Source of the DNA: Ostreococcus lucimarinus
Lineage: Eukaryota
Length of the DNA: 64,000 nucleotides
Assembly: GCA_000092065.1 (NCBI GenBank)
Contig: CP000591.1
Reading direction: 5' to 3' (one strand)
The notes under the pieces were generated by a model that did not search any database, had not been told where the DNA came from, and saw nothing but the letters and a program-made list of their open reading frames with translations. How positions within the stretch are numbered: the first letter of the stretch is position 1; every line of letters starts with the position of its first letter. Of this stretch, positions 8 to 64,000 are shown piece by piece. A program made the translations under genes and the position numbers.

Positions 8-241
8 ATGGAACTCGACCCACTTCTGGACGAGCTGATGCACACGAACGCTCGCGCCGAGATCAGCGCGCACGAACTCGCCGACGGTGTTCGCATCCTC
101 GCTCGGATGTGCCCCGAGTGGTGCACCATCGTTCACGCGCGGCACGGGGACGAAGAACTCTTTCGAATCGTCTCTCGCGACCCGGCGACGGCTCGCGTCG
201 CGCGCGCCAAACTCGCCAAGCTCTGCCGTGACGCCGCGTGA
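8..241 (+). CDS. Short ORF, possibly the C-terminal end of a gene that starts upstream of the window
   Basis: 77-codon ORF with GC3-rich codon usage ending 265 bp before the CDC73 start. No recognisable domain. Confidence 0.25.
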   Translation: MELDPLLDELMHTNARAEISAHELADGVRILARMCPEWCTIVHARHGDEELFRIVSRDPATARVARAKLAKLCRDAA

Positions 242-505
242 GCGTCGCGACGCAATATAGATTTTCACGCGTACAAATATTTCAGATATAGAATTTTTCA
301 TCGACGTCCACTTTCCACGCGCTGCCCGTCGCCGTCGTCTCCCGCCCGCGAGCCGTCGGCGCGCCGCCCTAATTCAATCAACTTCACTTCACCGCGCACG
401 GACGCGAGTGCGGTCGCGGGTCTAACTCGCTCCAGAGGTTGAAACGCGCGCGCACCGCGTCCTCGATCGCACGTCGCGCGCTATAACGCCTCACGCGCCG
501 CGAAC

Positions 506-4460: not shown

Positions 4461-4484
4461 AACGAACGAACGAACGACGGACGG
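4461..4484. repeat. (AACG)n microsatellite in the convergent 3' UTR region
   Basis: aacgaacgaacgaacgacggacgg. Confidence 0.6.
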
Positions 4485-4643
4485 GTCGAAATGCGCGTTT
4501 GCGCGACGCGCCCGCTACGTCGAAAACCTCAGGCGAGGGCTTTACTTTACTGGCCTGCGTTTGTGACTGAATGAATGATTTTATTTAAACAAAGTCCAAA
4601 GAGCTATACTTTACTTTATCTCAAGCTACTAGAGGCGGCAAAG

Positions 4644-6617: not shown

Positions 6618-8825
6618 TCAGGACGCGTTCAGGATGGACTGTCGAAGTTGCGAAATCACCTGCGCGGGATTGGCGGCGCCGAAGACGGCGCTGCCGGCGA
6701 CGAGGACGTTGGCGCCGGCGCGCGCGCAGAGCTCGGCGGTGCTCGGATTGACGCCGCCGTCCATTTGAATGTCCAAGTCTGGATACCTCGCGCGGAGGGC
6801 GGAGACTTTGTCACACACCGCGGGGTTGAACTTTTGACCACCGAACCCGGGTTCGACGGACAAGCACAGGACCATGTCGACGAGACCGGCGTCGACGAGC
6901 TCGTACACGCCGCCGTCTTCGTCGCACGGCGTGGACGGTTTGCACGCCACGGCGGCGCGCATGCCGAGCGATCGAATGGTTTTGCAGAGCTCCTCTGCGG
7001 CGGTACCGCTGACAACTTCGATATGGAACGTCACGCTCGACGCACCGGCGGCGGCGAGCGCGGGAACGAGCGTCGCAGGATTGCTCACGCTCAAGTGACA
7101 ATCGAAGAACGCGTCGCGCGGGCCGACGCGTTTCGCCAAATCCGCCACCACGGGAGGACCGATGGTCAAATTAGGGACGAAATGTCCGTCCATGATGTCG
7201 ACGTGCAACCAATCAGCGCCTTCGTCGAGCATGCGGTTGACTTCGGAGGCTAAAGCGCCTTGGTCGGCCGCCAACAGTGACGGGCAAACGATGGCGCGTT
7301 TGGTCGTCGAAACCGCGGGCGCTCGGCGCGCGCCCCACGTCTCGCGGAATGACGGATATAGTCGTAGGTACGCGGCGTACACGTCGGCATACGCTGCGTG
7401 TGCCTCTGGGTTCGGACTGATGACGCGCGATTTGCGAACCATCGCCGCGACGGCTTCGCGCACGCTTCCAAACAACCCCGCGCCGAAGGCGGCGAGTATT
7501 GCGCAACCGAGCGCGGGGGCGTCCGAACACTCGGTGACGACATGCGGCACTCCCGTGACGTCGGCGTGAATCTGTAACCAAAGTTCGCTTCGCGTCGCCC
7601 CGCCGGCGATGACGACTTCCTTCGGTTCGTACCCTCCGCGGGTCATGGTTTCAAAAATCAATCGCGTACCGCAACACACGCCCTCCAAAATCGCACGGAA
7701 CACGTGCGCTTTCGAGTGCTTGAGCGTGAGACCGGAGATCACTCCGCGGCTGAGTGCGTCCACGTGCGGGGTTCGGTTGCCTTGAAAGTGGTCGAGCGCG
7801 ACGACGCCTTCGCATCCAGGCGGGATCGCGCTCGCTTCGCGGTTCATGTCGTCGTAAAACGAATCGCCGCCGCCGCATAAATTCTTAAACCAATTCACCA
7901 CGGACCCCGTGCTCGTCTGACCACCCTCGACGACGAACGGCGCGCTCTCCACGAGCGCGTTTCTATACGTCCCGAAGATACCCTTCGCGTGAAATTCCTC
8001 CTCCGCGACGCCCAAGTGCAGGTGCGACGAGCCCGTGATCAGCGCTAACTGCCCCGGTTCGATGACTCCCAGCCCGACCATTCCCACGAACGCGTCCGCG
8101 CCTCCCTGAATCACCTTCGTGCCCTCGAGCAACCCGCACGCCGCCGCCGCTCGTGCCGTCATCCCGCCCACCGCCGCGCCCATCGGTAATATCTCCTTCG
8201 GCCACTTTTCCACCAACTCCGCGCACCCAAGCTTTTCTAACATCGTCATCGGCGGTCTCCCGTCGCCGTCGAAGTGCCACCGCACGCCGACGTTGTTCAT
8301 CGACCCGCAGTACCGTCCCGTGAGCCACAGGTTTACGTAATCCTGATACTCGCAAATCATCGTCGCTCTGTCGTACCGCTCCCGGTCGTTTCGCTTCAGC
8401 CACAGCGCCTTGGGCACCATCCACTCCGCGCTCACCGGTCCCGCGCCCGCGCAGTTGACGCGAAGCGCGTCGTCTTCCGTCTCGACGCACGCCGTCGCCT
8501 CGTCGCTCGCGCGGACGTCCATCCACAGCACGCTGTTCCCGATCGCGTCGCCGCGCGCGTCGAGCGCGACGACCGAGCAGCACGTCGTGTCGACGCACAC
8601 GGCCGCGACGTCGCGCGCGTCGACGCCGCACAGGCGCCGCGCCTCGGCGATGGCGGTCGCGAGCCCGTCGAGCCACGACGCGGGGACTTGCTCGGCGCGA
8701 CCGGGCGCGGGGTGCGAGGTGGCGTACGGGACGTCGGCGAACGCGAGCGGGACGCCGGTGAGGGTGAAGACACCGGCGCGGATGCCGGTGGTGCCGCCGT
8801 CGACGCCGACGACGACGGGAGGCAT
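6618..8825 (-). CDS. Bifunctional protein: N-terminal FGGY-family pentulose (ribulo/xylulo) kinase fused to C-terminal ribulose-phosphate 3-epimerase
   Basis: N-terminal FGGY signatures VGVDGGTTGIRAGVF, LWMDVRA and GGQTSTGS...NWF. The C-terminal 220 aa, IVCPSLLAAD...HVDIMDGHFVPNLTIGP...FHIE...LSVEPGFGGQKF...DIQMDGGVN...GANVLVAGSAVF, is a complete RPE. One uninterrupted ORF of 735 codons with ATG at 8825. Confidence 0.8.
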   Translation of the reverse strand: MPPVVVGVDGGTTGIRAGVFTLTGVPLAFADVPYATSHPAPGRAEQVPASWLDGLATAIAEARRLCGVDARDVAAVCVDTTCCSVVALDARGDAIGNSVLWMDVRASDEATACVETEDDALRVNCAGAGPVSAEWMVPKALWLKRNDRERYDRATMICEYQDYVNLWLTGRYCGSMNNVGVRWHFDGDGRPPMTMLEKLGCAELVEKWPKEILPMGAAVGGMTARAAAACGLLEGTKVIQGGADAFVGMVGLGVIEPGQLALITGSSHLHLGVAEEEFHAKGIFGTYRNALVESAPFVVEGGQTSTGSVVNWFKNLCGGGDSFYDDMNREASAIPPGCEGVVALDHFQGNRTPHVDALSRGVISGLTLKHSKAHVFRAILEGVCCGTRLIFETMTRGGYEPKEVVIAGGATRSELWLQIHADVTGVPHVVTECSDAPALGCAILAAFGAGLFGSVREAVAAMVRKSRVISPNPEAHAAYADVYAAYLRLYPSFRETWGARRAPAVSTTKRAIVCPSLLAADQGALASEVNRMLDEGADWLHVDIMDGHFVPNLTIGPPVVADLAKRVGPRDAFFDCHLSVSNPATLVPALAAAGASSVTFHIEVVSGTAAEELCKTIRSLGMRAAVACKPSTPCDEDGGVYELVDAGLVDMVLCLSVEPGFGGQKFNPAVCDKVSALRARYPDLDIQMDGGVNPSTAELCARAGANVLVAGSAVFGAANPAQVISQLRQSILNAS

Positions 8826-19086: not shown

Positions 19087-22068
19087 CTAGAGCGCGTCGC
19101 GCAAGACGCCGTCGGCGCGGTACTTGTCCTTCTCGGCCTGCCGCGCTCGCGCCCTGTCGGGGTCGACGCGACGAATGCCTTGGATGCCCACGGTCGGGGG
19201 ACGACGCTCGCGTTCCCAAACTTCTTCTTCGTTGTCGATGTGGGTGGTGACGGAGAGCTTCGTGCCGCGTTTGGCGGCTTGTTCAATCTTTTCGCGAATG
19301 GCGTCGGATTGTAACGCGCTGAACGGGGCGGCGTCTTTTCCGCCGCCGGCGCCGCCGCTTTGGGAGCCGGACTTTCTAAAATCAAATACTTGTTTACCGC
19401 CGCCGCCGCCGCCGCCGTGCCACCCGCCAGCCTCCATGCTCAGACCGTTCGAGGCGATTTGTTGCAGCGACTGGTACACCGCCTCCACGTTCAACTCCAT
19501 GTTCAGTTGTTTCTCTTCAATCGTGTCGTTGCTGATGATGATGTGTGACACGTTCGACGCGGTGTCTTGGCCAACAACTTGCACTTCCTTGACAGCGATC
19601 ATGACTTGCGCGATTTGCTCTGAAATATTTACTATGTCGGCGTGCATTTGTTGCATCGCGAGCTTGATGGCGCCCATCGTCGCCCCGGGCGCCGCTCCCG
19701 AGACTGGTACATTCGTATCCTTGAATCCACCCGCTGTGACCGTTCCGATTGCACCAGCTTGCTCCCTCGCACGTCTTTTCGTATCCTCTTGGGCGCGTTC
19801 CTGCTGCAGCAACTCGCGCCAATTCGAGCACACGTTGCGCGTTGTTTCTTCTAAAAATCTTCGCATGTCGCACTCGCTCAACGCGATGCGCGCCATCTTT
19901 GGTTTGTTCAGCGCTTGTAGCGCGTGCAAAAACTCATCCTCGAAGTTACGCAATAGAGTCGGTTGATGTTGCGCGCAAATATCATAAAACACCGCGTGGT
20001 CCATGACGAGCGCCTCGACGTGTTTGTCAAACGGCATGGCGCACAACATGCCTTTATAGAACCCGGAAAGTAAACCGGGGTTGAGCACTGTGCCCGGGCC
20101 GCGGAGCAAACCTTTTTCTTCCGCGAGTTCGATTTGCTGTTCTCGCAATCGCTTGCGCTTGATTTTCTGTACGTGGGAGTGGTGGAATCCGGACGCCTCG
20201 TCGGGGGAATACGAAACTCTCCCGTTGAGCGTGATGATGAACTTATCCGCAAGTTCGTACGGATAGCATATACGTGCGCCTCGCGCGTACATGTGCGTAT
20301 CCATGGTACGACAGAGGATCTCTATCACAATCCCGTCGGGCTGCACCGTGCCATTGGCCTTTAAACCTATGGACAGCGCTTTACCGTAAATGTAAAAGTT
20401 GACGTCGGCGCGAATCGCCTCGGGGAGCGGTTGGATGATATCTCGGTTCACCAGTTTTTGAGGTTTCGCGGAAGCCTTGTAGTGCGACCGGACGCGCGAT
20501 TTCAATCCGTTTGGCATCTTGTGCTCGGACAAAAGTTCGCGTACGTGGTTCATGAGCACCGCGAAGCGATTCCCGGGCGAGTCTTCATCCATGGACATGT
20601 TCACGCCGGAGATGATGGCGGAAAATACAAAGCCCCCGGTGATCATCACGAGGATGGCTATGACGCGTTCATCGACAGTGGTCGGAACGACGTTACCGTA
20701 GCCTACCGTCGTGAGTGTTTGCACCGACCAAAACAACGCGGCAACGTACATTTCACTCTTGTGCGACTCTACACCGCTCGCGTCTTCGCGTTGAAAGTCG
20801 TACACGTAGGCGTACGCACACGCCATCCAGTGAGAAAGGAGCACTAAAAGCGCGAGCAAGCGCCCGAGAGTCACCATTTTATACACGCGCATAAGATTCT
20901 CTTGATAACGTTCCAAGATTCTACCCGTGCGCATCACGCGAAGTAGGCGCAGCATTTTGAACAAACGCAGCACCTCGGGCACTTGTGAATTCTCAGCCGC
21001 GGCGCCACACGCCGCCTCAGACTCCCACGAACACGTCAACGTGCCATCGATGCTGCGAGAAACGTAATCCACGGGGATTAGCGATATGGCGTCCGGAATG
21101 AACCAGCCTTTCAAGTAATGCTTTTGAATCTTCCACAAATTCGTCACGTAGTGAAAGTCGTCGTCATCGGCGCTCGTCTCCCAGTACGCCGTGAAGAAGT
21201 TGAAAAACATGTCAATGTAGAAATAAATATCGACCAGAAAATCCGCGACGTACCACAATCCGTACGACGGCTCGCTGAACCCGATGCGATAGGGCACGGA
21301 AATCGCGATGTACAGCAACAGGAAAATTTGTAGAAAATCCCAATACTGCCGCAGCTTCGTCGTCGGGTGCATGACGAATAACGATCTCGCCTCGTCGTCA
21401 TCGCCGTATTTCGCGATCGCCGAGGCTTCATCTTCGTCCTCATCGCTGTCCGCCGCGTTCCAATCGGCCTCGGACTCGTCGCCGTGATCCAAGAAATTTT
21501 CCAACCGGGTGGTATCAAACATCTTTTGCTTGTGCTTCTCCGACGCCGCCGCCGTCATCGCCGCCCTCGCCATCTTATTCTCATCTAACCGCCGCCTCGT
21601 GTCGCCCTCCTCCTTTTCGCGCAGCGCCTTCGCGCTCGTCGCCAACCCATGCTTCGCTCTCGCCGCGCTTCCCCGCGGCACGTTGACGATGCCCGCCTTC
21701 GCCGCCTCCTTCGCCCTTCGAATCGCATCCTTCACCTTCTCCGCCCGCGTCATCGCTCGCGTCCCGTTCGCCGCGTCGAGCTTTCCATCGCCATCCCCGC
21801 GCGCGCCCTCGTCGCTTCCCGCGCTGTCGTGCGCGCTCGCCGTCGTCGCGTCGCGCGCGTCGCTCGCGTTTGGTGTTGCGCCCGCGCCGAAGAATTCGTC
21901 GTCGGAATCGCCGTCGCGCGTCGCGCGCGTCGCGCGATCGCGCGTCTTCGCGCGCGCGCGCTCGGCGGCGGCCATCGCGCGCCTGCGCGGCGACGCGACG
22001 TCGCGACGACGCGGTGTGCGACGCGTCGCGCCGCGACCGACCGACCGACGCGCGCGTCCGTGCGCCAC
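19087..22068 (-). CDS. Voltage-gated K+ channel with a C-terminal cyclic-nucleotide-binding domain (EAG/KAT/AKT-like)
   Basis: Pore signature TTVGYGNVVP (GYG filter). S4-like segment LFKMLRLLRVMRTGRILERY. Six-transmembrane-helix topology. CNBD after the pore (RTMDTHMYARGARICYPYELADKFIITLNGRV). Long acidic and coiled-coil tail. Confidence 0.8.
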   Translation of the reverse strand: MAHGRARRSVGRGATRRTPRRRDVASPRRRAMAAAERARAKTRDRATRATRDGDSDDEFFGAGATPNASDARDATTASAHDSAGSDEGARGDGDGKLDAANGTRAMTRAEKVKDAIRRAKEAAKAGIVNVPRGSAARAKHGLATSAKALREKEEGDTRRRLDENKMARAAMTAAASEKHKQKMFDTTRLENFLDHGDESEADWNAADSDEDEDEASAIAKYGDDDEARSLFVMHPTTKLRQYWDFLQIFLLLYIAISVPYRIGFSEPSYGLWYVADFLVDIYFYIDMFFNFFTAYWETSADDDDFHYVTNLWKIQKHYLKGWFIPDAISLIPVDYVSRSIDGTLTCSWESEAACGAAAENSQVPEVLRLFKMLRLLRVMRTGRILERYQENLMRVYKMVTLGRLLALLVLLSHWMACAYAYVYDFQREDASGVESHKSEMYVAALFWSVQTLTTVGYGNVVPTTVDERVIAILVMITGGFVFSAIISGVNMSMDEDSPGNRFAVLMNHVRELLSEHKMPNGLKSRVRSHYKASAKPQKLVNRDIIQPLPEAIRADVNFYIYGKALSIGLKANGTVQPDGIVIEILCRTMDTHMYARGARICYPYELADKFIITLNGRVSYSPDEASGFHHSHVQKIKRKRLREQQIELAEEKGLLRGPGTVLNPGLLSGFYKGMLCAMPFDKHVEALVMDHAVFYDICAQHQPTLLRNFEDEFLHALQALNKPKMARIALSECDMRRFLEETTRNVCSNWRELLQQERAQEDTKRRAREQAGAIGTVTAGGFKDTNVPVSGAAPGATMGAIKLAMQQMHADIVNISEQIAQVMIAVKEVQVVGQDTASNVSHIIISNDTIEEKQLNMELNVEAVYQSLQQIASNGLSMEAGGWHGGGGGGGKQVFDFRKSGSQSGGAGGGKDAAPFSALQSDAIREKIEQAAKRGTKLSVTTHIDNEEEVWERERRPPTVGIQGIRRVDPDRARARQAEKDKYRADGVLRDAL

Positions 22069-22070
22069 AT

Positions 22071-22087
22071 CGTATGGGCAAACAGTA
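22071..22087 (-). promoter_or_regulatory. Fifth copy (reverse orientation) of the ACTGTTTGCCCATACG motif, in the K+ channel / IscA bidirectional promoter
   Basis: Plus strand reads cgtatgggcaaacagta; its reverse complement is tactgtttgcccatacg. Confidence 0.45.
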
Positions 22088-22159
22088 TAACGTTAATATA
22101 AACCATCGCCCCGACGCCGCGCCGTCGACGCGCGCGGCGCCGCGCACGCGCGCGCGCCG

Positions 22160-34222: not shown

Positions 34223-35764
34223 TCACGCCGCAACCGATTGAGCGTTCGCGTCGCCGAGCACCGCCTCGCTCGCAGTCGGCGGGGCGAGGATCTTCCTGCT
34301 CTCGTGGAAGTATTGATGCGGCGTGTGCACGCCCGCCTCGATTTCGACGCCGTCGTGAATCGCCGCAAACGTCATACCGCACGCGATTTGGTAGTGCATA
34401 TTCGTCGCCTTCTCGACAATCGCGTGCGACTTAGCACCAGAGATTTTCAACGTACCGAGCAACTCGTGCAAACGTGCGCCGTTATCCTTGACGCCAGACG
34501 TGAGCGTCTTGAACGGACAACCGTGCGCGTCCTTCACGCCCGGATCCGCTGCGATGCACTGACCGCACGCGTGCGGGGTGTAGTTGACGCGCTTCCCTTC
34601 CTTACCGTACGCGTGTCTGATACCATACGCGTAATCTTTTTCAAACTTCTCCGCGGAGCATTTCGGGTGCTTTGTGAACTCTGTCTTCCAAAACACGAGC
34701 GCCTGGTCCAGAGGCAAGCCGATGCCCTTCAAATACAGTTGCAGTTGTCGTCGACCGCCGTGCGTCAGGTGATGATCTTTCTTGAGCGCCTTGTAAAGCT
34801 GGCGCATGCACAGCGGGAAAGACTCTTGCGTGGCTTCGATGCCGGCGATCGACATCGTGCCGTCTTCGCCTTGGAAATCGTACCCGCTTCCCGATCGACG
34901 GTTGTGCACAGATTTCAAAAGCGGCGTCAAACGGTGAGCCTCCTTCTTTTCAAACTTGTTGAAGAGCGTGATGGCTTCGGCGACCATCTTGTTCAGCATC
35001 GTCTTAAACCGACCGAACACGAGTTGATCGAGGGTTTCTTTACGAATCCACGCGTTTCCGCCGATCAAGTACGCCCGTCTCGACTTGACGAGCGGGCACA
35101 CCTCTTCGAAACCGACGACGAACCAACGCGACGCCTCGCTCGCCGCTTCCTCGCACATCCTCTGGTACTCCATCGTCCCGAGCTTACCATCTTTACTGAG
35201 ACTTCGACGCATCTGCCTATACTCGTGGTCCGCCATCAAGACGTCCCGCAAATCGTCCCGTCTCTCCCGCACTTCCTTCTCGCTCGCCCGCGCGTAATCG
35301 TTAAACCCATTCGTCCGCATAAACTCCATCTTCGCGTCCAAACTCAGCTCACCGTACCGATACTTGAACAACTCCAACTCGTTCTCCCGAAACCATCGCC
35401 TGTGTTCTTCGCTTCGACAGCTCGCCAACCTCAACAAAAAATGACTCGTCGCGTCTCTCGCCGCGCCCTCCGCGTCAAACGTCCCCCCCGTCGTCCGTCG
35501 CATGTTATATTCCTCCTCCGCGCTCGCGATCGCCCGTTTCAATTCCTCATCCTTCTTCCCACCGCTTCGCGCGTCGTCGATCGCCCGCAAGACGCCGTAC
35601 CGATCCATCGCCGCGCGCTCCAGGTACTCGATGGAGCGTTCGTCATCCGGCGCGGTGTTGTACGCGTCCAACCGCGCCGCGTTTCCGCCGTACTTTCGCT
35701 CGAGCGCGGTCTTGGCGCGCGCTTCCGCTTTCTCTCGATTCGTGCGCAGCGCGCCGAAGACCAT
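34223..35764 (-). CDS. PRIM2: DNA primase large subunit (PriL/PRIM2)
   Basis: PLCMRQLYKALKKDHHLTHGGRRQLQLYLKGIGLPLDQALVFW...HACGQCIAADPGVKDAHGCPFK is the Fe-S cluster domain of the eukaryotic primase large subunit. ATG at 35764. Confidence 0.85.
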   Translation of the reverse strand: MVFGALRTNREKAEARAKTALERKYGGNAARLDAYNTAPDDERSIEYLERAAMDRYGVLRAIDDARSGGKKDEELKRAIASAEEEYNMRRTTGGTFDAEGAARDATSHFLLRLASCRSEEHRRWFRENELELFKYRYGELSLDAKMEFMRTNGFNDYARASEKEVRERRDDLRDVLMADHEYRQMRRSLSKDGKLGTMEYQRMCEEAASEASRWFVVGFEEVCPLVKSRRAYLIGGNAWIRKETLDQLVFGRFKTMLNKMVAEAITLFNKFEKKEAHRLTPLLKSVHNRRSGSGYDFQGEDGTMSIAGIEATQESFPLCMRQLYKALKKDHHLTHGGRRQLQLYLKGIGLPLDQALVFWKTEFTKHPKCSAEKFEKDYAYGIRHAYGKEGKRVNYTPHACGQCIAADPGVKDAHGCPFKTLTSGVKDNGARLHELLGTLKISGAKSHAIVEKATNMHYQIACGMTFAAIHDGVEIEAGVHTPHQYFHESRKILAPPTASEAVLGDANAQSVAA

Positions 35765-35824: not shown

Positions 35825-36039
35825 GTCGCGATTTCAAATTTCGTGGCGTCGGCGCCGCGCGCGGTGCGATTTCGAGGGTCGGCCTCGCGCACCGCGCACT
35901 GTTTACCCATACGCGCGTCGCGATTTCAAATTTCGTGGCGTCGGCGCCGCGCGCGGTGCGATTTCGAGGCGTCGGCGCCGCGCGCGGTGCGATTTCGAGG
36001 GTCGGACCTCGCGCACCGCGCACTGTTTACCCATACGCG
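35825..36039. repeat. Tandem duplication (about 92 bp unit x2, the second copy carrying an internal 31-bp re-duplication) in the primase/36129-gene bidirectional promoter
   Basis: Unit gtcgcgatttcaaatttcgtggcgtcggcgccgcgcgcggtgcgatttcgagggtcgg[c/a]cctcgcgcaccgcgcactgtttacccatacgcg at 35825-35916 and 35917-36039. Each copy carries TTTCAAATTTCG and CACTGTTTACCCATACGCG. Confidence 0.85.
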
Positions 36040-36128
36040 TCAACGCGCGGACGCGGCGCGACGCGCGACGCGCGCGCGCACGTCGCGACGCGCGCGCGAC
36101 CGCGACCGCGACCGCGCGGCGACGCGCC

Positions 36129-37364
36129 ATGTCCGCGGCGCTGGCGGAGACGATCGCGCGCGACGCCGCGGACGGACGCGCGGGCGAGTACGACCTCGCG
36201 GGATTCGGCGAGGCGTGGGTCGACGCGCTCGTCGAGGCGGCGTTCGCGACGCCGACGCGCGCGAAAGGAGGGTTTTACGCGTCGTGCAAGTTCATCGTCG
36301 GCGGCGGGAAGAAGACGCGGGCGAAGTACGACGATGAGGTGGTGAAACACTTGACGGCGGCGCTGCGCGCGAGGGGGTTCGAGGACGACAGAGGCGCGAG
36401 CGCGTGCGAGGCGTGCCAAGGGACGTATAAGTACCAGCACGACACGGATAAGGATTTAAAATACTTGCACGTGTTTCCGAGGGTGACGCACGAGGCGGAG
36501 GGGGGGGAGGCGGCGGCGGCGGCGGGCGGGACGCAGTCGCCCGAGTATCGCGCGTGCGCGTGCGATTTGGAGGAGTTCGAGCGATTGGTGGAGATGTATT
36601 GTCCGAGCTTTTCGCAAAAGCGCGCGCTGTTGCGCAGGATGAAGGTGATGGAGCACGCGCTCGGGGCGCTGGAACAAAAGGTGATCGCGATGGAGAGCTT
36701 GAATGATCGCGAGCAGACGATGTACGACTCGATGGTTGAAGTCGCGGCGAAGATTGAGTTCTTACAACAGGCGCTGGACGACATGATCAAGAAGGGTCGA
36801 TTGACGAAAGGCGAACAAGGAGAAATCGTCGAAGATTTGGAGCTCAAGCTCGAAGATTTGAACCTGATGGTGAACGAGGCGAACGAGGAGGGGAAGCCGA
36901 AGCGCGCGGAGATGCTCGAGAGCAAGAAGGAAATCGTCGTCAAGAAGATTGACTCGGTGCGCGCGAAACCTCCAATCGTGTACACGGTGCCGCACGAACG
37001 CGAACTTTTGGACTTGAAGAAGGAGCTGAACTCGCTGAAAAAAATTGCCGCACAATCGAAAGGAAAGTTGATGAGCGGTGCGGACGCGGCGAAGTGCGCG
37101 AATATTCCCAAGCTCGAAGAGCGCATAGCGAATTTGGAAAACTCCGAGGAAAAAGGATGGTACGAGGACGAATGCCGAGCGCTTCTCTTTCCACCGGTCG
37201 CCGAAAAGAAAGCACCGGCGAAGGCCAAGGCGAGTGGCGCCAAAACCAATTCGGGATGGCTCACCAAGGCGGCAAAGGGCGGATCGCGCGGCGGAGGTGG
37301 ATCCGCGAAAGCTTCGTCGACTCGTGGTCCTTCCAACCCGTTCGCGATGCTCGGCGACGATTAG
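36129..37364 (+). CDS. Hypothetical coiled-coil protein
   Basis: ATG at 36129 (MSAALAETIARDAADG...). Heptad-rich central region (LEQKVIAMESLNDREQTMYDSMVEVAAKIEFLQQALDDMIKKG...). The upstream part of ORF 35502 is antisense to the primase gene and is not coding. Confidence 0.6.
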   Translation: MSAALAETIARDAADGRAGEYDLAGFGEAWVDALVEAAFATPTRAKGGFYASCKFIVGGGKKTRAKYDDEVVKHLTAALRARGFEDDRGASACEACQGTYKYQHDTDKDLKYLHVFPRVTHEAEGGEAAAAAGGTQSPEYRACACDLEEFERLVEMYCPSFSQKRALLRRMKVMEHALGALEQKVIAMESLNDREQTMYDSMVEVAAKIEFLQQALDDMIKKGRLTKGEQGEIVEDLELKLEDLNLMVNEANEEGKPKRAEMLESKKEIVVKKIDSVRAKPPIVYTVPHERELLDLKKELNSLKKIAAQSKGKLMSGADAAKCANIPKLEERIANLENSEEKGWYEDECRALLFPPVAEKKAPAKAKASGAKTNSGWLTKAAKGGSRGGGGSAKASSTRGPSNPFAMLGDD

Positions 37365-47277: not shown

Positions 47278-49095
47278 TTAATTCGGGTCGTCGTCGTCGG
47301 CGGAGGGCGGTGATTCGGCGCGCGCGAGCTCGATGGCGTCCATGTCTTCGCTGACTCGGCGCAGGGCGGCGCGCATGCGCTCGGCGTAGGAGACGCCGGA
47401 ATCGTCGTCGGCGGCGTCGTCGTCGGCGGCGTCGTCGGCGGCGAAATCGTTCACGGCGAGCAAGACCTCGTCCACGGCGGTGGATTCGTCGATGTCTTTC
47501 ACGCGCTTGACCTTTCGAACGACGTCTTGGAATAAGACGTTGACGTCGCGCGATATCGATGGGTCGCGCCGCATGGCGTCGACGACGTCGCGACCCATGC
47601 GTCGCTTTTTCCTCGCCAACATGTTTTTAAACGCGGCGGCTTGCGCCCTGCGAACGGTGTCCGGATCGGGCGGGCCGGCGCCGCGCGCGGGCGCGGCGTC
47701 GCCGAGCGCGCGCTCGATGAAACGCGTCATCGTGTTCCGTTGATGGATGATGTACATGGCGTCCGCGACGTAGCCGCCGACGATCGGGGCGAACACGCCT
47801 CCGGTGACGACGAAGGCGAGCGATTGCGAGACGAAGAGCAATCGACTGCGGCTGCCGTCCAAAAAATCTTTCACGCTCTTTCCGCGCAGGATGTTTTCGA
47901 ACGCGCGCGTCTCCGCGACGTTCGGCGCTTCGTTTGCGGACAGCGGCGACGACGACTCGTCGTCCGCGGCGGCGTCGGGCTTCTTCTCCCAAAACTTGAG
48001 CGACGGTTTCTTCGTCTTTTCGGCGCTCGCCTTGATGTCGTCCTCGCTCACCGGCACCAACTTTTGTTTGCCCGTCACCTTGTTCCGCTCCACTCTGAAC
48101 GCCTGCACGCGCGTTTGTCTCTGCACGCGTCGCAAACGCGCCTCGAGGACGAGGTACACGCCGAACGCCGCCGCCGCCTTGGCCGGGGCGTCGACTTCGT
48201 ACGGCTCGAACCCCGCCTCGACGGCGCGGTCGGCGAGCCACTTGGCGAGCAAACCCAAAACCACTCCGCGCTCGAGCATCTCGTCCGCGACTCGCGCGGT
48301 GAGCGCGACGGACGCGTCCATCCAAAACGGCATGCTTCTGCACGGATTATTCAGCGTCTCCTCTTCCTGATACCTCGACAGCGGCTCAAAGTACCGCTCG
48401 AGCGCCGACGCCTCGCGAACCTCCCCCGACGCCTCCTCGCGCGCCTCGTTCGTCGCCTCCGCGCGCGCGGTCCAATCGACCCCCATCACCAACGCGTCGT
48501 AAATCGCCGTCGGCGCCGCGAACGCCAATCCGATCGACGCCGCGCGCGCGAAATCCATCGCCTCGCCCCCCGTCCCGGCGCCGAAATCGCCAAACGCGCT
48601 CGCGCCCGCGGCGTACGCCAAGCACACCGCCAGCGTCCCTTTCACCCCTCCCACGGCCACCAACAGCGACAGATACTCTCGCATCATCGCCTTCTCCGGC
48701 GTTTCCGACGACGACGCGTCCGCGCCGTCGGCATCCGATTCGCGCGGCGTCTCGCCGCGTCCCGACGCCGCCGTCGAATCCCCGCGCGCGCGCGTCGTCG
48801 ACCTTCGCGCCGCCGACGCCCGGTCCATCGCCTCGGTCGCGCCCGCGCTCGACGCGCGCGCGTCCTCGTCGCCCTCCGTCGCGTCGTCGTCGTCCAGCGA
48901 CTCGCCGAGGACGCTGCGCAGCGCGTCGAACGTCCCGCTCGGCGACGCCGACGCGAGCGACTCGTCCTCGTCGTCCTCGCGCGTCGCGCGCGCGCGCCGG
49001 TTCGCGACGCCGCGCGCGCGGCGCGCTCGACGCCGGCGCGCGCTCGGGCGTCGCGCGAGCGCGCGCGCGGGCGCGCGCGTCGCGCGCGGCGCCAT
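47278..49095 (-). CDS. Hypothetical membrane protein with an R/A-rich presequence (organelle-targeted?)
   Basis: ATG at 49095 (MAPRATRAPARALARR...). Hydrophobic segments (EYLSLLVAVGGVKGTLAVCLAYAAGASAF..., LLFVSQSLAFVVTGGVFAPIVGGYV). The far upstream part of ORF 47278-50004 is antisense to the SH3BP5-like gene and was discarded. Confidence 0.55.
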   Translation of the reverse strand: MAPRATRAPARALARRPSARRRRARRARGVANRRARATREDDEDESLASASPSGTFDALRSVLGESLDDDDATEGDEDARASSAGATEAMDRASAARRSTTRARGDSTAASGRGETPRESDADGADASSSETPEKAMMREYLSLLVAVGGVKGTLAVCLAYAAGASAFGDFGAGTGGEAMDFARAASIGLAFAAPTAIYDALVMGVDWTARAEATNEAREEASGEVREASALERYFEPLSRYQEEETLNNPCRSMPFWMDASVALTARVADEMLERGVVLGLLAKWLADRAVEAGFEPYEVDAPAKAAAAFGVYLVLEARLRRVQRQTRVQAFRVERNKVTGKQKLVPVSEDDIKASAEKTKKPSLKFWEKKPDAAADDESSSPLSANEAPNVAETRAFENILRGKSVKDFLDGSRSRLLFVSQSLAFVVTGGVFAPIVGGYVADAMYIIHQRNTMTRFIERALGDAAPARGAGPPDPDTVRRAQAAAFKNMLARKKRRMGRDVVDAMRRDPSISRDVNVLFQDVVRKVKRVKDIDESTAVDEVLLAVNDFAADDAADDDAADDDSGVSYAERMRAALRRVSEDMDAIELARAESPPSADDDDPN

Positions 49096-49119
49096 GATGT
49101 GACACCGCGACGCGGCAGC

Positions 49120-50328
49120 ATGGCGCCGACGCCGCGCGCGGGCGAGCGCGACGGCGCCGACGCGGCGCGCGACGACACCGCGCGCGCGCCGGCGCGCGAG
49201 AGGGAGACGGCGAAGCCGGCGCCGCGCGAGGAGGGCGCGAACGATGGCGTCGGTGCGATGCGCGAATTCAACGACGACGACGAGGACGCGACGACGACGG
49301 CGACGGCGGCGACGCGCGACGCGATCGAGCGCGAAACGACGGCGTCGACGACGCCGGTGACGCCGGAGACGCGCCTGCTGGGCGAACGCCTGGACGCGCT
49401 GGACGAAGAGGCGGAGCTGACGGTGGAGTCGTTTCTGAGGGCGAAGTTCGACGCGGCGACGACGACGACGACGGATTTCGAGAGCGCGTCCGGACGGTCG
49501 GAGAGCGATGCGGGCGGAAGAGGCGAACGCGTGGACGACGCGGAGACGCTGTACGCGCGAGATACGGATTTGGAGGAGGCGGAGGAGGTGGACCCGCGCG
49601 TGGGCGACGCGCTGGACGAGTTGAACGATTCCATGACGGAGTGCAACGGGTTGGAAAACGCGCTGCAAGAGGCGAGGAAGGCGCGCTCGAGGACGCAAAC
49701 GGTGGCGAGAAAGAGACTGGATTCGGTGGCGGCGAGGTTGTCGTCGAGCGTCATGACGGCGGTGCCTGTGTTTCACAAGCGAGCGTTGGCGCAGCTGTAT
49801 CAGGTGCGAAGCATCGAGGCGCTGCGGGCGTACGAGAGCGCGCACGACGCGCACGAACGCGCGAAGAAGCGGAACGATGAGCTCGAGCGCGAGCTCGTGG
49901 CGAGTAGCGGTAAAGTAGACATCGAGCTCATGGAGGTGTGCGCGGAGGCCATGCGCGAGGTTTCTGAGACGACGGCGGTGAAGCTCCGAGCGACCGAGGT
50001 GCACGAGCGCAACACGCGACGCGCCGTCGAGGCCACCGCCGAAGCGGCCGGTCTCGAGCGCGAGCGCACGAGCGCGGTGAAAAAGGCTCTCCCGTGGTTC
50101 AACGCTAAAGCTTTGGGCGAGGCGGAGTGCGCGCAGGCGGACGAACGCGTGAGCGAATTAAAACTCGCCGTTCGCCAAGCCAAGGCGAGATACGAAGCCG
50201 CGCTCCGCGCGTTGAACGAAATCAGCGAGGAAGTGCACGCCCGTCGCGAGGCGCGCAAGCTCGCGCGCGAGGCTTCAGCTCTAGATATCAGCGCCGTTCC
50301 CGAGATCGAACGGGAGGAAGGCGTGTAA
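49120..50328 (+). CDS. SH3BP5-like coiled-coil protein (Rab11 GEF family)
   Basis: EEVDPRVGDALDELNDSMTECNGLENALQEARKARSRTQTVARKRLDSVAARL ... AKARYEAALRALNEISEEVHARREARKL parallels SH3BP5 (EEVDPRIQGELEKLNQ..., LNEISEEIHERR...). The upstream part of ORF 47641 is antisense to the preceding gene. Confidence 0.7.
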   Translation: MAPTPRAGERDGADAARDDTARAPARERETAKPAPREEGANDGVGAMREFNDDDEDATTTATAATRDAIERETTASTTPVTPETRLLGERLDALDEEAELTVESFLRAKFDAATTTTTDFESASGRSESDAGGRGERVDDAETLYARDTDLEEAEEVDPRVGDALDELNDSMTECNGLENALQEARKARSRTQTVARKRLDSVAARLSSSVMTAVPVFHKRALAQLYQVRSIEALRAYESAHDAHERAKKRNDELERELVASSGKVDIELMEVCAEAMREVSETTAVKLRATEVHERNTRRAVEATAEAAGLERERTSAVKKALPWFNAKALGEAECAQADERVSELKLAVRQAKARYEAALRALNEISEEVHARREARKLAREASALDISAVPEIEREEGV

Positions 50329-63549: not shown

Positions 63550-63634
63550 CGACGAGTGCGGCGGCGTCGACGCGCGCGCGGATCGCGCGGCGCGCGTCGA
63601 AAATCGGTCGCGTACTGTTTGCCCACACGCGACG

Positions 63635-63647
63635 TTTTCGCGCCAAA
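63635..63647. promoter_or_regulatory. Canonical E2F-type site TTTTCGCGCCAAA (copy 1)
   Basis: Matches TTTSGCGC and the DHFR-type TTTCGCGCCAAA element. It lies between two divergent genes. Confidence 0.5.
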
Positions 63648-63702
63648 TTCATTGACATGTCGCCTCGCACATCGGTCGCGGACTGTTTGCCCATACGCGA
63701 CG

Positions 63703-63715
63703 TTTTCGCGCCAAA
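63703..63715. promoter_or_regulatory. Canonical E2F-type site TTTTCGCGCCAAA (copy 2)
   Basis: Identical 13-mer in the second repeat copy, 12 bp upstream of the ATG at 63727. Confidence 0.5.
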
Positions 63716-63726
63716 TTCATTGACAA

Positions 63727-64000
63727 ATGTCGCCTCGACGACGCGGACGCGCGACGACGACGCCGGCGCCGACGCGAGAGCGCGTCGCGACGACGGACGC
63801 GACGGCGCGACGGGAGGCGGCGATGACGGCGCGCGCGACGCGCGAGCGCGACGACGGCGCGCGGGCGACGACGGACGAGGGCGGCGCGCGGGCGACGACG
63901 GACGAGGATCGCGCGCGGCTGACAAAGTATTGGTTGCGACGACGGTGCTCGACGGGATCGCACGCGAGCGAGGCGACGGAGGTGGGGATGCTGACGGGAG
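63727..64000 (+). CDS. 5' end of a gene continuing beyond the window (unknown product)
   Basis: ATG at 63727, open to the window end (MSPRRRGRATTTPAPTRERVATTD...RARLTKYWLRRRCSTGSHASEATEVGMLTG). It lies immediately downstream of the E2F-containing direct repeat. Confidence 0.4.
   Translation, partial: MSPRRRGRATTTPAPTRERVATTDATARREAAMTARATRERDDGARATTDEGGARATTDEDRARLTKYWLRRRCSTGSHASEATEVGMLTG

Follow-up and report, generated by a model that had tools for sequence, protein, structure and literature searches.

We wanted to understand why one short word recurs in several promoters of a 64,000-nt stretch of Ostreococcus lucimarinus DNA (contig CP000591.1 of assembly GCA_000092065.1; this whole 64-kb stretch is called the window). 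The word, ACTGTTTRCCCAYACG, has 16 positions, of which 14/16 are fixed, the remaining two being the degenerate R and Y. Judging from sequence comparisons, we favour with moderate confidence the explanation that ACTGTTTRCCCAYACG is a protein-binding element of gene 5' regions, which was seeded by transposons and is selectively maintained. We infer its protein binding, its seeding by transposons, the selection on its core and its function from the way in which it is distributed. We did not find ACTGTTTRCCCAYACG described in the literature on Ostreococcus and Micromonas promoters, introners and genomes, and an earlier description is possible.

We observed five exact matches to ACTGTTTRCCCAYACG in the window and none in 100 dinucleotide-preserving shuffles, which agrees with the claim of the preliminary description of this DNA that the motif is far above chance. 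When up to three mismatches were allowed, no further copy was detected in the window. Each half of ACTGTTTRCCCAYACG, searched alone in the window, was not above chance. Since there were no copies with one to three mismatches and the halves were not enriched, ACTGTTTRCCCAYACG is an all-or-none word in the window.

All three loci that carry the motif in the window are divergent promoters. Site 1 lies between the genes of an Ion_trans K+ channel (minus strand) and a Fe-S_biosyn IscA-like protein (plus strand). It holds one solitary exact copy, ACTGTTTGCCCATACG, on the minus strand (22071-22086), 95 nt from the ATG of the K+ channel (21975) and 73 nt from the ATG of the IscA-like gene (22160). Site 2 lies between the genes of the DNA primase large subunit (minus strand) and an unannotated 411-aa protein (plus strand). 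Here two exact copies were found on the plus strand: ACTGTTTACCCATACG at 35898-35913, and a second copy at 36022-36037, which is the product of a local duplication and lies 91 nt upstream of the ATG at 36129. The pattern matches confirm that, as previously described, the 16-mer recurs twice in the primase promoter and once, in reverse, in the K+ channel/IscA promoter. Site 3 lies between genes of 111 aa (minus strand) and 212 aa (plus strand), both unannotated and without a Pfam match, and both called in the near-identical strain L001 as well (L-numbered loci are sequences outside the window fetched for comparison). Its two exact copies are on the plus strand: ACTGTTTGCCCACACG at 63614-63629 in unit 1 of a 68-nt repeat, and ACTGTTTGCCCATACG at 63682-63697 in unit 2. 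The former is separated by 64 nt from the start codon of the 111-aa gene (63549), and the latter precedes that of the 212-aa gene (63823) by 125 nt. By exact protein identity, the K+ channel of the window is XP_001420439.1 and an FKBP protein of the window is XP_001420445.1.

The paired copies at sites 2 and 3 lie in tandem duplications. At site 2 they sit in a 33-nt exact repeat within a tandem duplication (35838-36079) with a period of approximately 123-124 nt and an internal 31-nt repeat (score 338), and the duplicated stretch holds the motif together with a TTTCAAATTTCG element. The duplication at site 3 (63593-63725, with the scored tandem repeat at 63603-63737; score 240) consists of two 68-nt units, 92-94% identical, and each unit contains the motif, an E2F-like site and TTCATTGACA. 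These were the two top tandem repeats of the 64 kb; the others scored at most 145 and were GC-rich and of low complexity. We identified one unit with one motif at site 2 in 9/9 environmental O. lucimarinus-type haplotypes, and at site 3 the 68-nt unit is present once in strain L001. Because there was a single unit in every environmental haplotype compared, both duplications are very young, and only the strain of the window has them among the sequences compared. The copies within site 2 and within site 3 share flanks; therefore they represent three independent loci, not five. The five near-identical copies with unrelated flanks that had been described are thus five true matches at three loci, two of which were doubled by tandem duplication, and the flanks are unrelated between the loci but shared between paired copies. 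Local motif arrays were also present in L138 and L161. The motif sites coincide with recent tandem duplication and look like duplication hot spots, and such young duplications suggest structural instability there. The points where the contigs L002 and L003 end were considered as possible starts of transcripts and rejected, as the tandem repeat itself breaks assemblies.

Outside the window, the motif was counted in at least 120 matching metagenome stretches, exact matches only. Among the stretches listed, approximately 100 were CpG-rich contigs of 50-75% GC. One locus was an exact O. lucimarinus protein match and another fell in a 90% cluster with an O. tauri protein; the other contigs would belong to Mamiellophyceae judging by their composition and gene content. 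A few high-GC stretches without Mamiellophyceae-like features were set down as probable chance matches in bacteria. In viral contigs the motif occurred as 51 single matches, a number that we regard as chance level.

In 487 kb of non-redundant loci with crude gene calls, 10/68 matches lay inside called open reading frames (ORFs), while 73% of this sequence was coding. The possibility that the motif occurs equally often in coding regions, which had been named as a test of its regulatory nature, is thus contradicted by a strong depletion there. In the same 487 kb, the intergenic regions with the motif were divergent in 15 cases, tandem in 12 and convergent in 0. The background (divergent/tandem/convergent) comprised 56/79/59 regions with total lengths of 25.4/28.0/15.3 kb. 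With placement in proportion to length, 27 regions would include no convergent one with a probability of approximately 0.001. We did not observe any orientation bias in tandem gene pairs (6 same, 6 opposite), and the distance from the motif to the start codon varied from about 30 to 650 nt. The neighbouring genes encode, among others, a tRNA synthetase, tryptophan synthase, asparagine synthase, UPF1, an organellar DNA polymerase, a ribosomal protein and a histidine-kinase rhodopsin.

We further compared the sequences around the motif. In 107/134 instances there was no flank similarity within ±120 nt (singletons among the matches listed). A logo of 68 non-redundant solitary sites had its information in the 16-mer, with weak preferences for T at -4, C at -3, A at -2 and A at +1. 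The flanks were enriched in poly(A/T) tracts, as promoters are, and had a weak excess of E2F octamers and telo-boxes; the search for a partner motif in the flanks gave nothing else. In approximately 490 kb of loci outside the intron families described below, copies with one mismatch were rare outside transposon and tandem arrays, and those with two mismatches were few. An apparent orthology of L068 and L132 to site 1, obtained from flank clustering, was discarded as a low-complexity artefact.

Comparison of haplotypes indicated that the core is kept when its surroundings change. In the diverged haplotype L178 the site 1 motif was exact and in the same orientation, while the AT-rich stretch and other flank bases differed. 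In the primase promoter of nine haplotypes, variation inside the motif was seen at the degenerate Y position only. There were no empty-site alleles among the haplotypes compared. In other clades of Ostreococcus (O. tauri and further lineages; 59-70% protein identity) synteny was kept and the motif was missing. The density of the motif is lineage-specific, and individual sites turn over. Across clades the primase promoter keeps another pair instead, a AAATTTGAAA-type palindrome and CGACAGCTCG.

Some observations were made in the course of these comparisons. The AT-rich stretch at site 1 (22087-22105) is the TATA-like ATAACGTTAATATAAACC, which directly abuts the motif in CCE9901 (the strain of the window) and is missing from L178, where the motif is kept. 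The pair conserved in the primase promoter is the palindrome AAATTTGAAA or TTTGAAAATTTTCAAAAC followed by CGACAGCTCG, in either orientation, and it was located at 35826-35850 and 35918-35942 of the window, at approximately 2935-2975 of L004 and at approximately 2810-2860 of L005/L006. The palindrome AAATTTGAAA includes TTTGAA, as the cell-cycle CHR (cell-cycle genes homology region) element does. In L178/L184 (ERZ10646539 contig_9997) the primase is 99% identical to that of the window, while the K+ channel, approximately 13 kb away, is only 87% identical (the counterparts in the window are 34223-35764 and 19087-21975, respectively). The degree to which O. lucimarinus-type haplotypes diverge varies strongly from one part of the chromosome to another.

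The motif was also found in mobile DNA. L161 is a complete Mutator-like element, present as its own contig of 6,092 bp, with perfect 166-nt terminal inverted repeats (TIRs) and two motif copies in each inverted end. It encodes a 1,053-aa MULE/SWIM transposase (PF10551, PF21056), a 573-aa OTU protease and a 264-aa ORF; its inverted ends consist of tccgaaagtatccgaa repeats and the two motif copies. The transposases of L192 and L193 are 36% identical to that of L161, and a module of approximately 40 nt, ATCTCCAGARCRCACCTCG...-ACTGTTTGC[C/T]CATACG, is kept at the element end; the fragment L168 has the module too. The 16-mer is the 3' part of this terminal module in Mutator-like elements, and the upstream half of the module is missing from solitary promoter copies, as seen in the logo. 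The association with the ends of elements that encode a MULE transposase holds for L161, L192 and L193, and not for the copies in the window. The module occupies the position at which Mutator elements are known to be bound by their transposase; their long inverted ends also contain promoters (PMC3310237).

Two further kinds of element carry the word. In one locus it precedes a PIF/Harbinger transposase ORF by 74 nt. In L117, L097, L106 and L089 it lies between family-specific short tandem repeats of a repeated element. In L117 we noted 129-nt direct repeats (1994-2122 and 4478-4606; 95% identical, 2.5 kb apart), in each of which cagctcgta(c/t)ca tandem repeats surround the motif or a version of it with one mismatch. 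Transposase copies were sought in all other fetched loci and none was found.

Finally, in Micromonas-like contigs of 56-60% GC, some of them from TARA Oceans, the motif is central in many repeated introns of 71-84 nt. Their layout is GTA[AC]GTATTTCCCA..AATCC..-motif-AGACTGACACTTTC..CAG, and in 20 short instances the motif was always sense and 1-2 nt before the branch site. Longer repeated introns with two motif copies were present as well, together with many variants with one or two mismatches. In length (74-75 nt) and in splice signals (GTA[AC]G 5' end, GACTGAC branch site and CAG 3' end), these introns agree with what is described for the E2-IEt1 introners of polar Micromonas (PMC4540971), the consensus being published there as figures only. 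They are probably members of the E2 introner families of this alga. The copies in the window differ, as they are not introns, and PMC4540971 mentions neither this core nor a counterpart in promoters or transposons. The contigs packed with such introns include L067, L069, L076, L077, L080, L081, L086, L103, L151 and L158, among others (for example L081, minus strand, 8150-8560). They also have longer composite introns, and as many as 8 motif-like copies within 12 kb. Several sub-families were seen, in which the motif core is common and the rest differs. A reading of the intron 5' end as an inverted motif copy was unsupported by the 20 aligned instances.

With these results, the claim that the motif is a cis-regulatory site rather than a dispersed repeat needs to be qualified. 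The motif is mostly solitary, non-coding and on the 5' sides of genes, as had been proposed, but it is also a part of transposon ends and introns. Extended conserved flanks, which would speak for a repeat, were absent in the window and in the 107 singletons, and they were present in Mutator-like ends, one element family and the introns.

We propose the following mechanism. ACTGTTTRCCCAYACG would be the core of a discrete, non-palindromic element of approximately 17-21 bp, characteristic of Mamiellophyceae, at which a putative sequence-specific DNA-binding protein with a long footprint docks. This protein may act at gene 5' sides, in any orientation and at variable distance (about 30-650 nt to the ATG), in a role closer to a general promoter, boundary or open-chromatin factor than to a pathway-specific activator. 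New motif copies are probably seeded by mobile DNA, as Mutator-like ends and short introns carry the word, and after insertion selection would keep the bound core alone.

Several observations argue for this mechanism. Repeated origin by point mutation is implausible because of the 14 fixed positions. The sites are lineage-specific, which suggests copy-and-paste seeding, most simply by mobile elements that carry the word. The core appears to be maintained, since flank similarity has been lost, the core is exact and degenerate copies are near absent outside transposon and intron arrays. A general DNA-bound factor fits better because there is no orientation bias, the distance is variable, the motif is restricted to 5' sides and its neighbours are diverse. 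The three unrelated mobile contexts favour a shared host factor.

Other observations weigh against the mechanism. The motif was not found at the site 1 promoter of L179, L180 and L181, in the orthologous primase and K+ channel promoters of 3-4 other Ostreococcus clades, or in approximately 113 kb sampled from such clades. Individual sites are without deep conservation, as is also expected of neutral relics. The genes beside the motif sites have no common function. We looked for a conserved host gene derived from a transposase and found none. Moreover, exact conservation among the metagenome matches is partly built in by exact-match retrieval, and the genes on the metagenome contigs were called by a crude model, for which the codon usage of the window served as training set.

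The relics mentioned above are the alternative that survives best. Solitary copies could be inert remnants of Mutator-like ends or of small derivatives, found on 5' sides by insertion preference. The motif is indeed part of a conserved transposon-end module and of repeated introns, its lineage-specific sites have no counterpart in orthologous promoters of other clades, and site 2 of the window weakly resembles the upstream part of the module (GCGCACCGCGC compared with GCGCACCTCG). Mu-type elements favour the 5' ends of genes, which also suits this explanation. However, the 16-mer is exact though its flanks are fully unrelated, and there is no tail of copies with one to three mismatches in the window and few such copies in other non-intron loci. 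The motif also remained exact between diverged haplotypes while adjacent bases changed. The intron copies, in contrast, show many decayed variants, as expected without selection on each copy. We therefore regard inert remnants as unlikely, though still a serious possibility.

A more specific version of the mechanism we favour is that the motif is bound by a Mutator-type transposase or by a host protein derived from one, with the promoter copies as its targets. FHY3 and FAR1 of Arabidopsis are transcription factors derived from Mutator-like transposases, which bind the FHY3/FAR1-binding site (FBS) in promoters, and they provide a precedent. The approximately 40-nt module is kept in element ends despite only 36% transposase identity, and the transposase of L161 has both MULE and SWIM domains. 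On the other hand, the module's upstream half is missing from solitary copies. A shared host factor, rather than one transposase, is suggested by the further occurrence of the motif next to an unrelated Harbinger transposase and in an element with different subterminal repeats. No conserved homologue was found in Mamiellophyceae: the L161 family is rare in public data, with 3 homologues from a word search, an exhaustive search gave 6 at E<=1e-30, and of ten proteins looked up the named ones came only from Riccia, Adiantum and Mesostigma. We consider a transposase-derived binder rather improbable.

The Arabidopsis FBS and our motif have some features in common. The FBS is likewise a word common to Mutator-like elements and host promoters, independent of orientation and upstream of genes. 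It differs in length, as our motif has 16 nt and the FBS 7 nt (CACGCGC); here no transposase-derived host gene was found. The MURA-binding site of maize Mu (PMC3310237) is likewise a module of tens of bases in long inverted ends, kept between diverged elements. Here, in contrast, the 3' 16 nt of the module also occur alone beside host genes and with a Harbinger transposase.

Yeast general regulatory factors have sites such as Rap1 ACACCCATACA, Reb1 TTACCCG and Abf1. Like our motif, these are of high information, occur in many unrelated promoters independently of orientation and lie in poly(A/T)-rich DNA. The Rap1 core is identical to the ACCCATAC core of the motif, which is a resemblance only, and yeast is a different lineage. 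We also compared the motif with the RFX X-box, c-Myb, the plant small nuclear RNA (snRNA) upstream sequence element (USE; TCCCACATCG), ZNF143 and forkhead sites; these resemblances were partial and none covers the 16 nt.

The motif could instead act at the level of RNA, from a 5' untranslated region (5'UTR) or an intron, for example as a splicing or RNA-protein signal. In the repeated introns its fixed sense orientation and its position before the branch site would fit this, and each copy in the window is sense for one of its two flanking genes. We did not observe any splice signals around the window copies, and a 5'UTR-intron reading of them was ruled out on this ground. Half of the copies in tandem gene pairs are antisense to both neighbours. 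We found no match to Rfam and no tRNA in the window, L124, L129 and L090. Therefore we consider an action at the RNA level very improbable.

The preliminary description had placed canonical E2F sites next to the motif and likened its core to a forkhead site. Two E2F-like TTTTCGCGCCAAA copies were detected at site 3 on the plus strand, the first at 63635-63647 and the duplicated one at 63703-63715, each 5 nt after a motif copy. Both contain the TTTSSCGC core, as TTTCGCGC and TTTGGCGC, which overlap at 63636-63647 and 63704-63715. The neighbour at site 3 is identical, base for base, to TTTCGCGCCAAA, the DHFR-type E2F site, so the match itself stood. However, the motif and this neighbour are distinct elements, 5 nt apart; the neighbour is present at one locus, and the E2F octamer is at chance level in this CpG-rich genome. 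The two E2F sites are one duplicated site, because both lie in the 68-nt tandem units and L001 has a single unit; the TTTTCGCGCCAAA 13-mer has one independent occurrence in the window. The E2F-like site is a separate neighbour of the motif at one promoter only. A general link to E2F did not hold, given the functionally diverse neighbour genes and the number of E2F octamers in the window (33 observed compared with 37.7 expected). In the motif flanks there were 0.81 octamers per kb compared with 0.41 per kb in a mostly coding background (approximately 2-fold).

The forkhead likeness was not supported either. It is a resemblance of 7 nt inside an element of 16-21 nt, and shorter cores were not above chance; a TRTTTRY core is not the entire specificity, as 14/16 positions are fixed. 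Forkhead-box factors are not known in green algae or plants (Viridiplantae). That the motif is a cell-cycle element which works with E2F, or a site of the forkhead type, is thus the least probable explanation. In its favour are the TTTTCGCGCCAAA element that comes after the motif at site 3, the position of site 2 before the gene of the primase large subunit and the likeness of TGTTTRC to a forkhead core. Against it, the E2F neighbour is at one locus with its second copy made by duplication, the octamer is at chance level in the window, the genes beside the motif elsewhere are diverse housekeeping genes, the primase promoter conserves a different element across clades and the information spans 16 nt or more.

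We return to the seeded and maintained protein-binding element. It is possible, though unlikely as far as can be judged, that one protein with a long footprint, perhaps of Mutator-transposase ancestry, recognises the 16-mer throughout Mamiellophyceae. Such a protein would tie together host promoters, Mutator-like ends and the short introns of polar-type Micromonas, and a transposon superfamily could then be named behind an introner family. It would also mean that a module of transposon ends has been reused on a large scale in the role of promoter or boundary element, and tight binding might explain why both of the clearest young tandem duplications lie on motif sites.

The picoeukaryotes of the Mamiellophyceae (Ostreococcus, Micromonas, Bathycoccus) serve as models; their promoters are very compact, and hardly any cis elements have been mapped in them. 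A near-invariant 16-nt word that marks gene 5' sides would be an easy handle for finding the factor that binds it, and transformation is available for O. tauri. The motif could also aid the study of how neighbouring genes are insulated with intergenic spacers of approximately 200 bp. Its presence in Mutator-like ends and in introns is a lead on which transposons yield the introners of Micromonas.

Two further observations were made. A non-coding block of approximately 150 nt is conserved in three diverged genomes and ends exactly at the 16-mer (L124 approximately 100-380, minus strand; L129 approximately 1-280; L090 approximately 1-95). It holds CTAAACCCTAGC, TTTGCCCAT, TCAACTGAGGATA and a AAAATATTAC box, and had no conserved ORF and no Rfam or tRNA match in these three loci; it could be a small RNA gene or a multi-site promoter. 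In the window, ORFs of 908 aa (minus strand) and 895 aa (plus strand) overlap almost fully at 47278-50328, where the GC content is 70%. Only one of them can be real, and the codon model prefers the minus strand.

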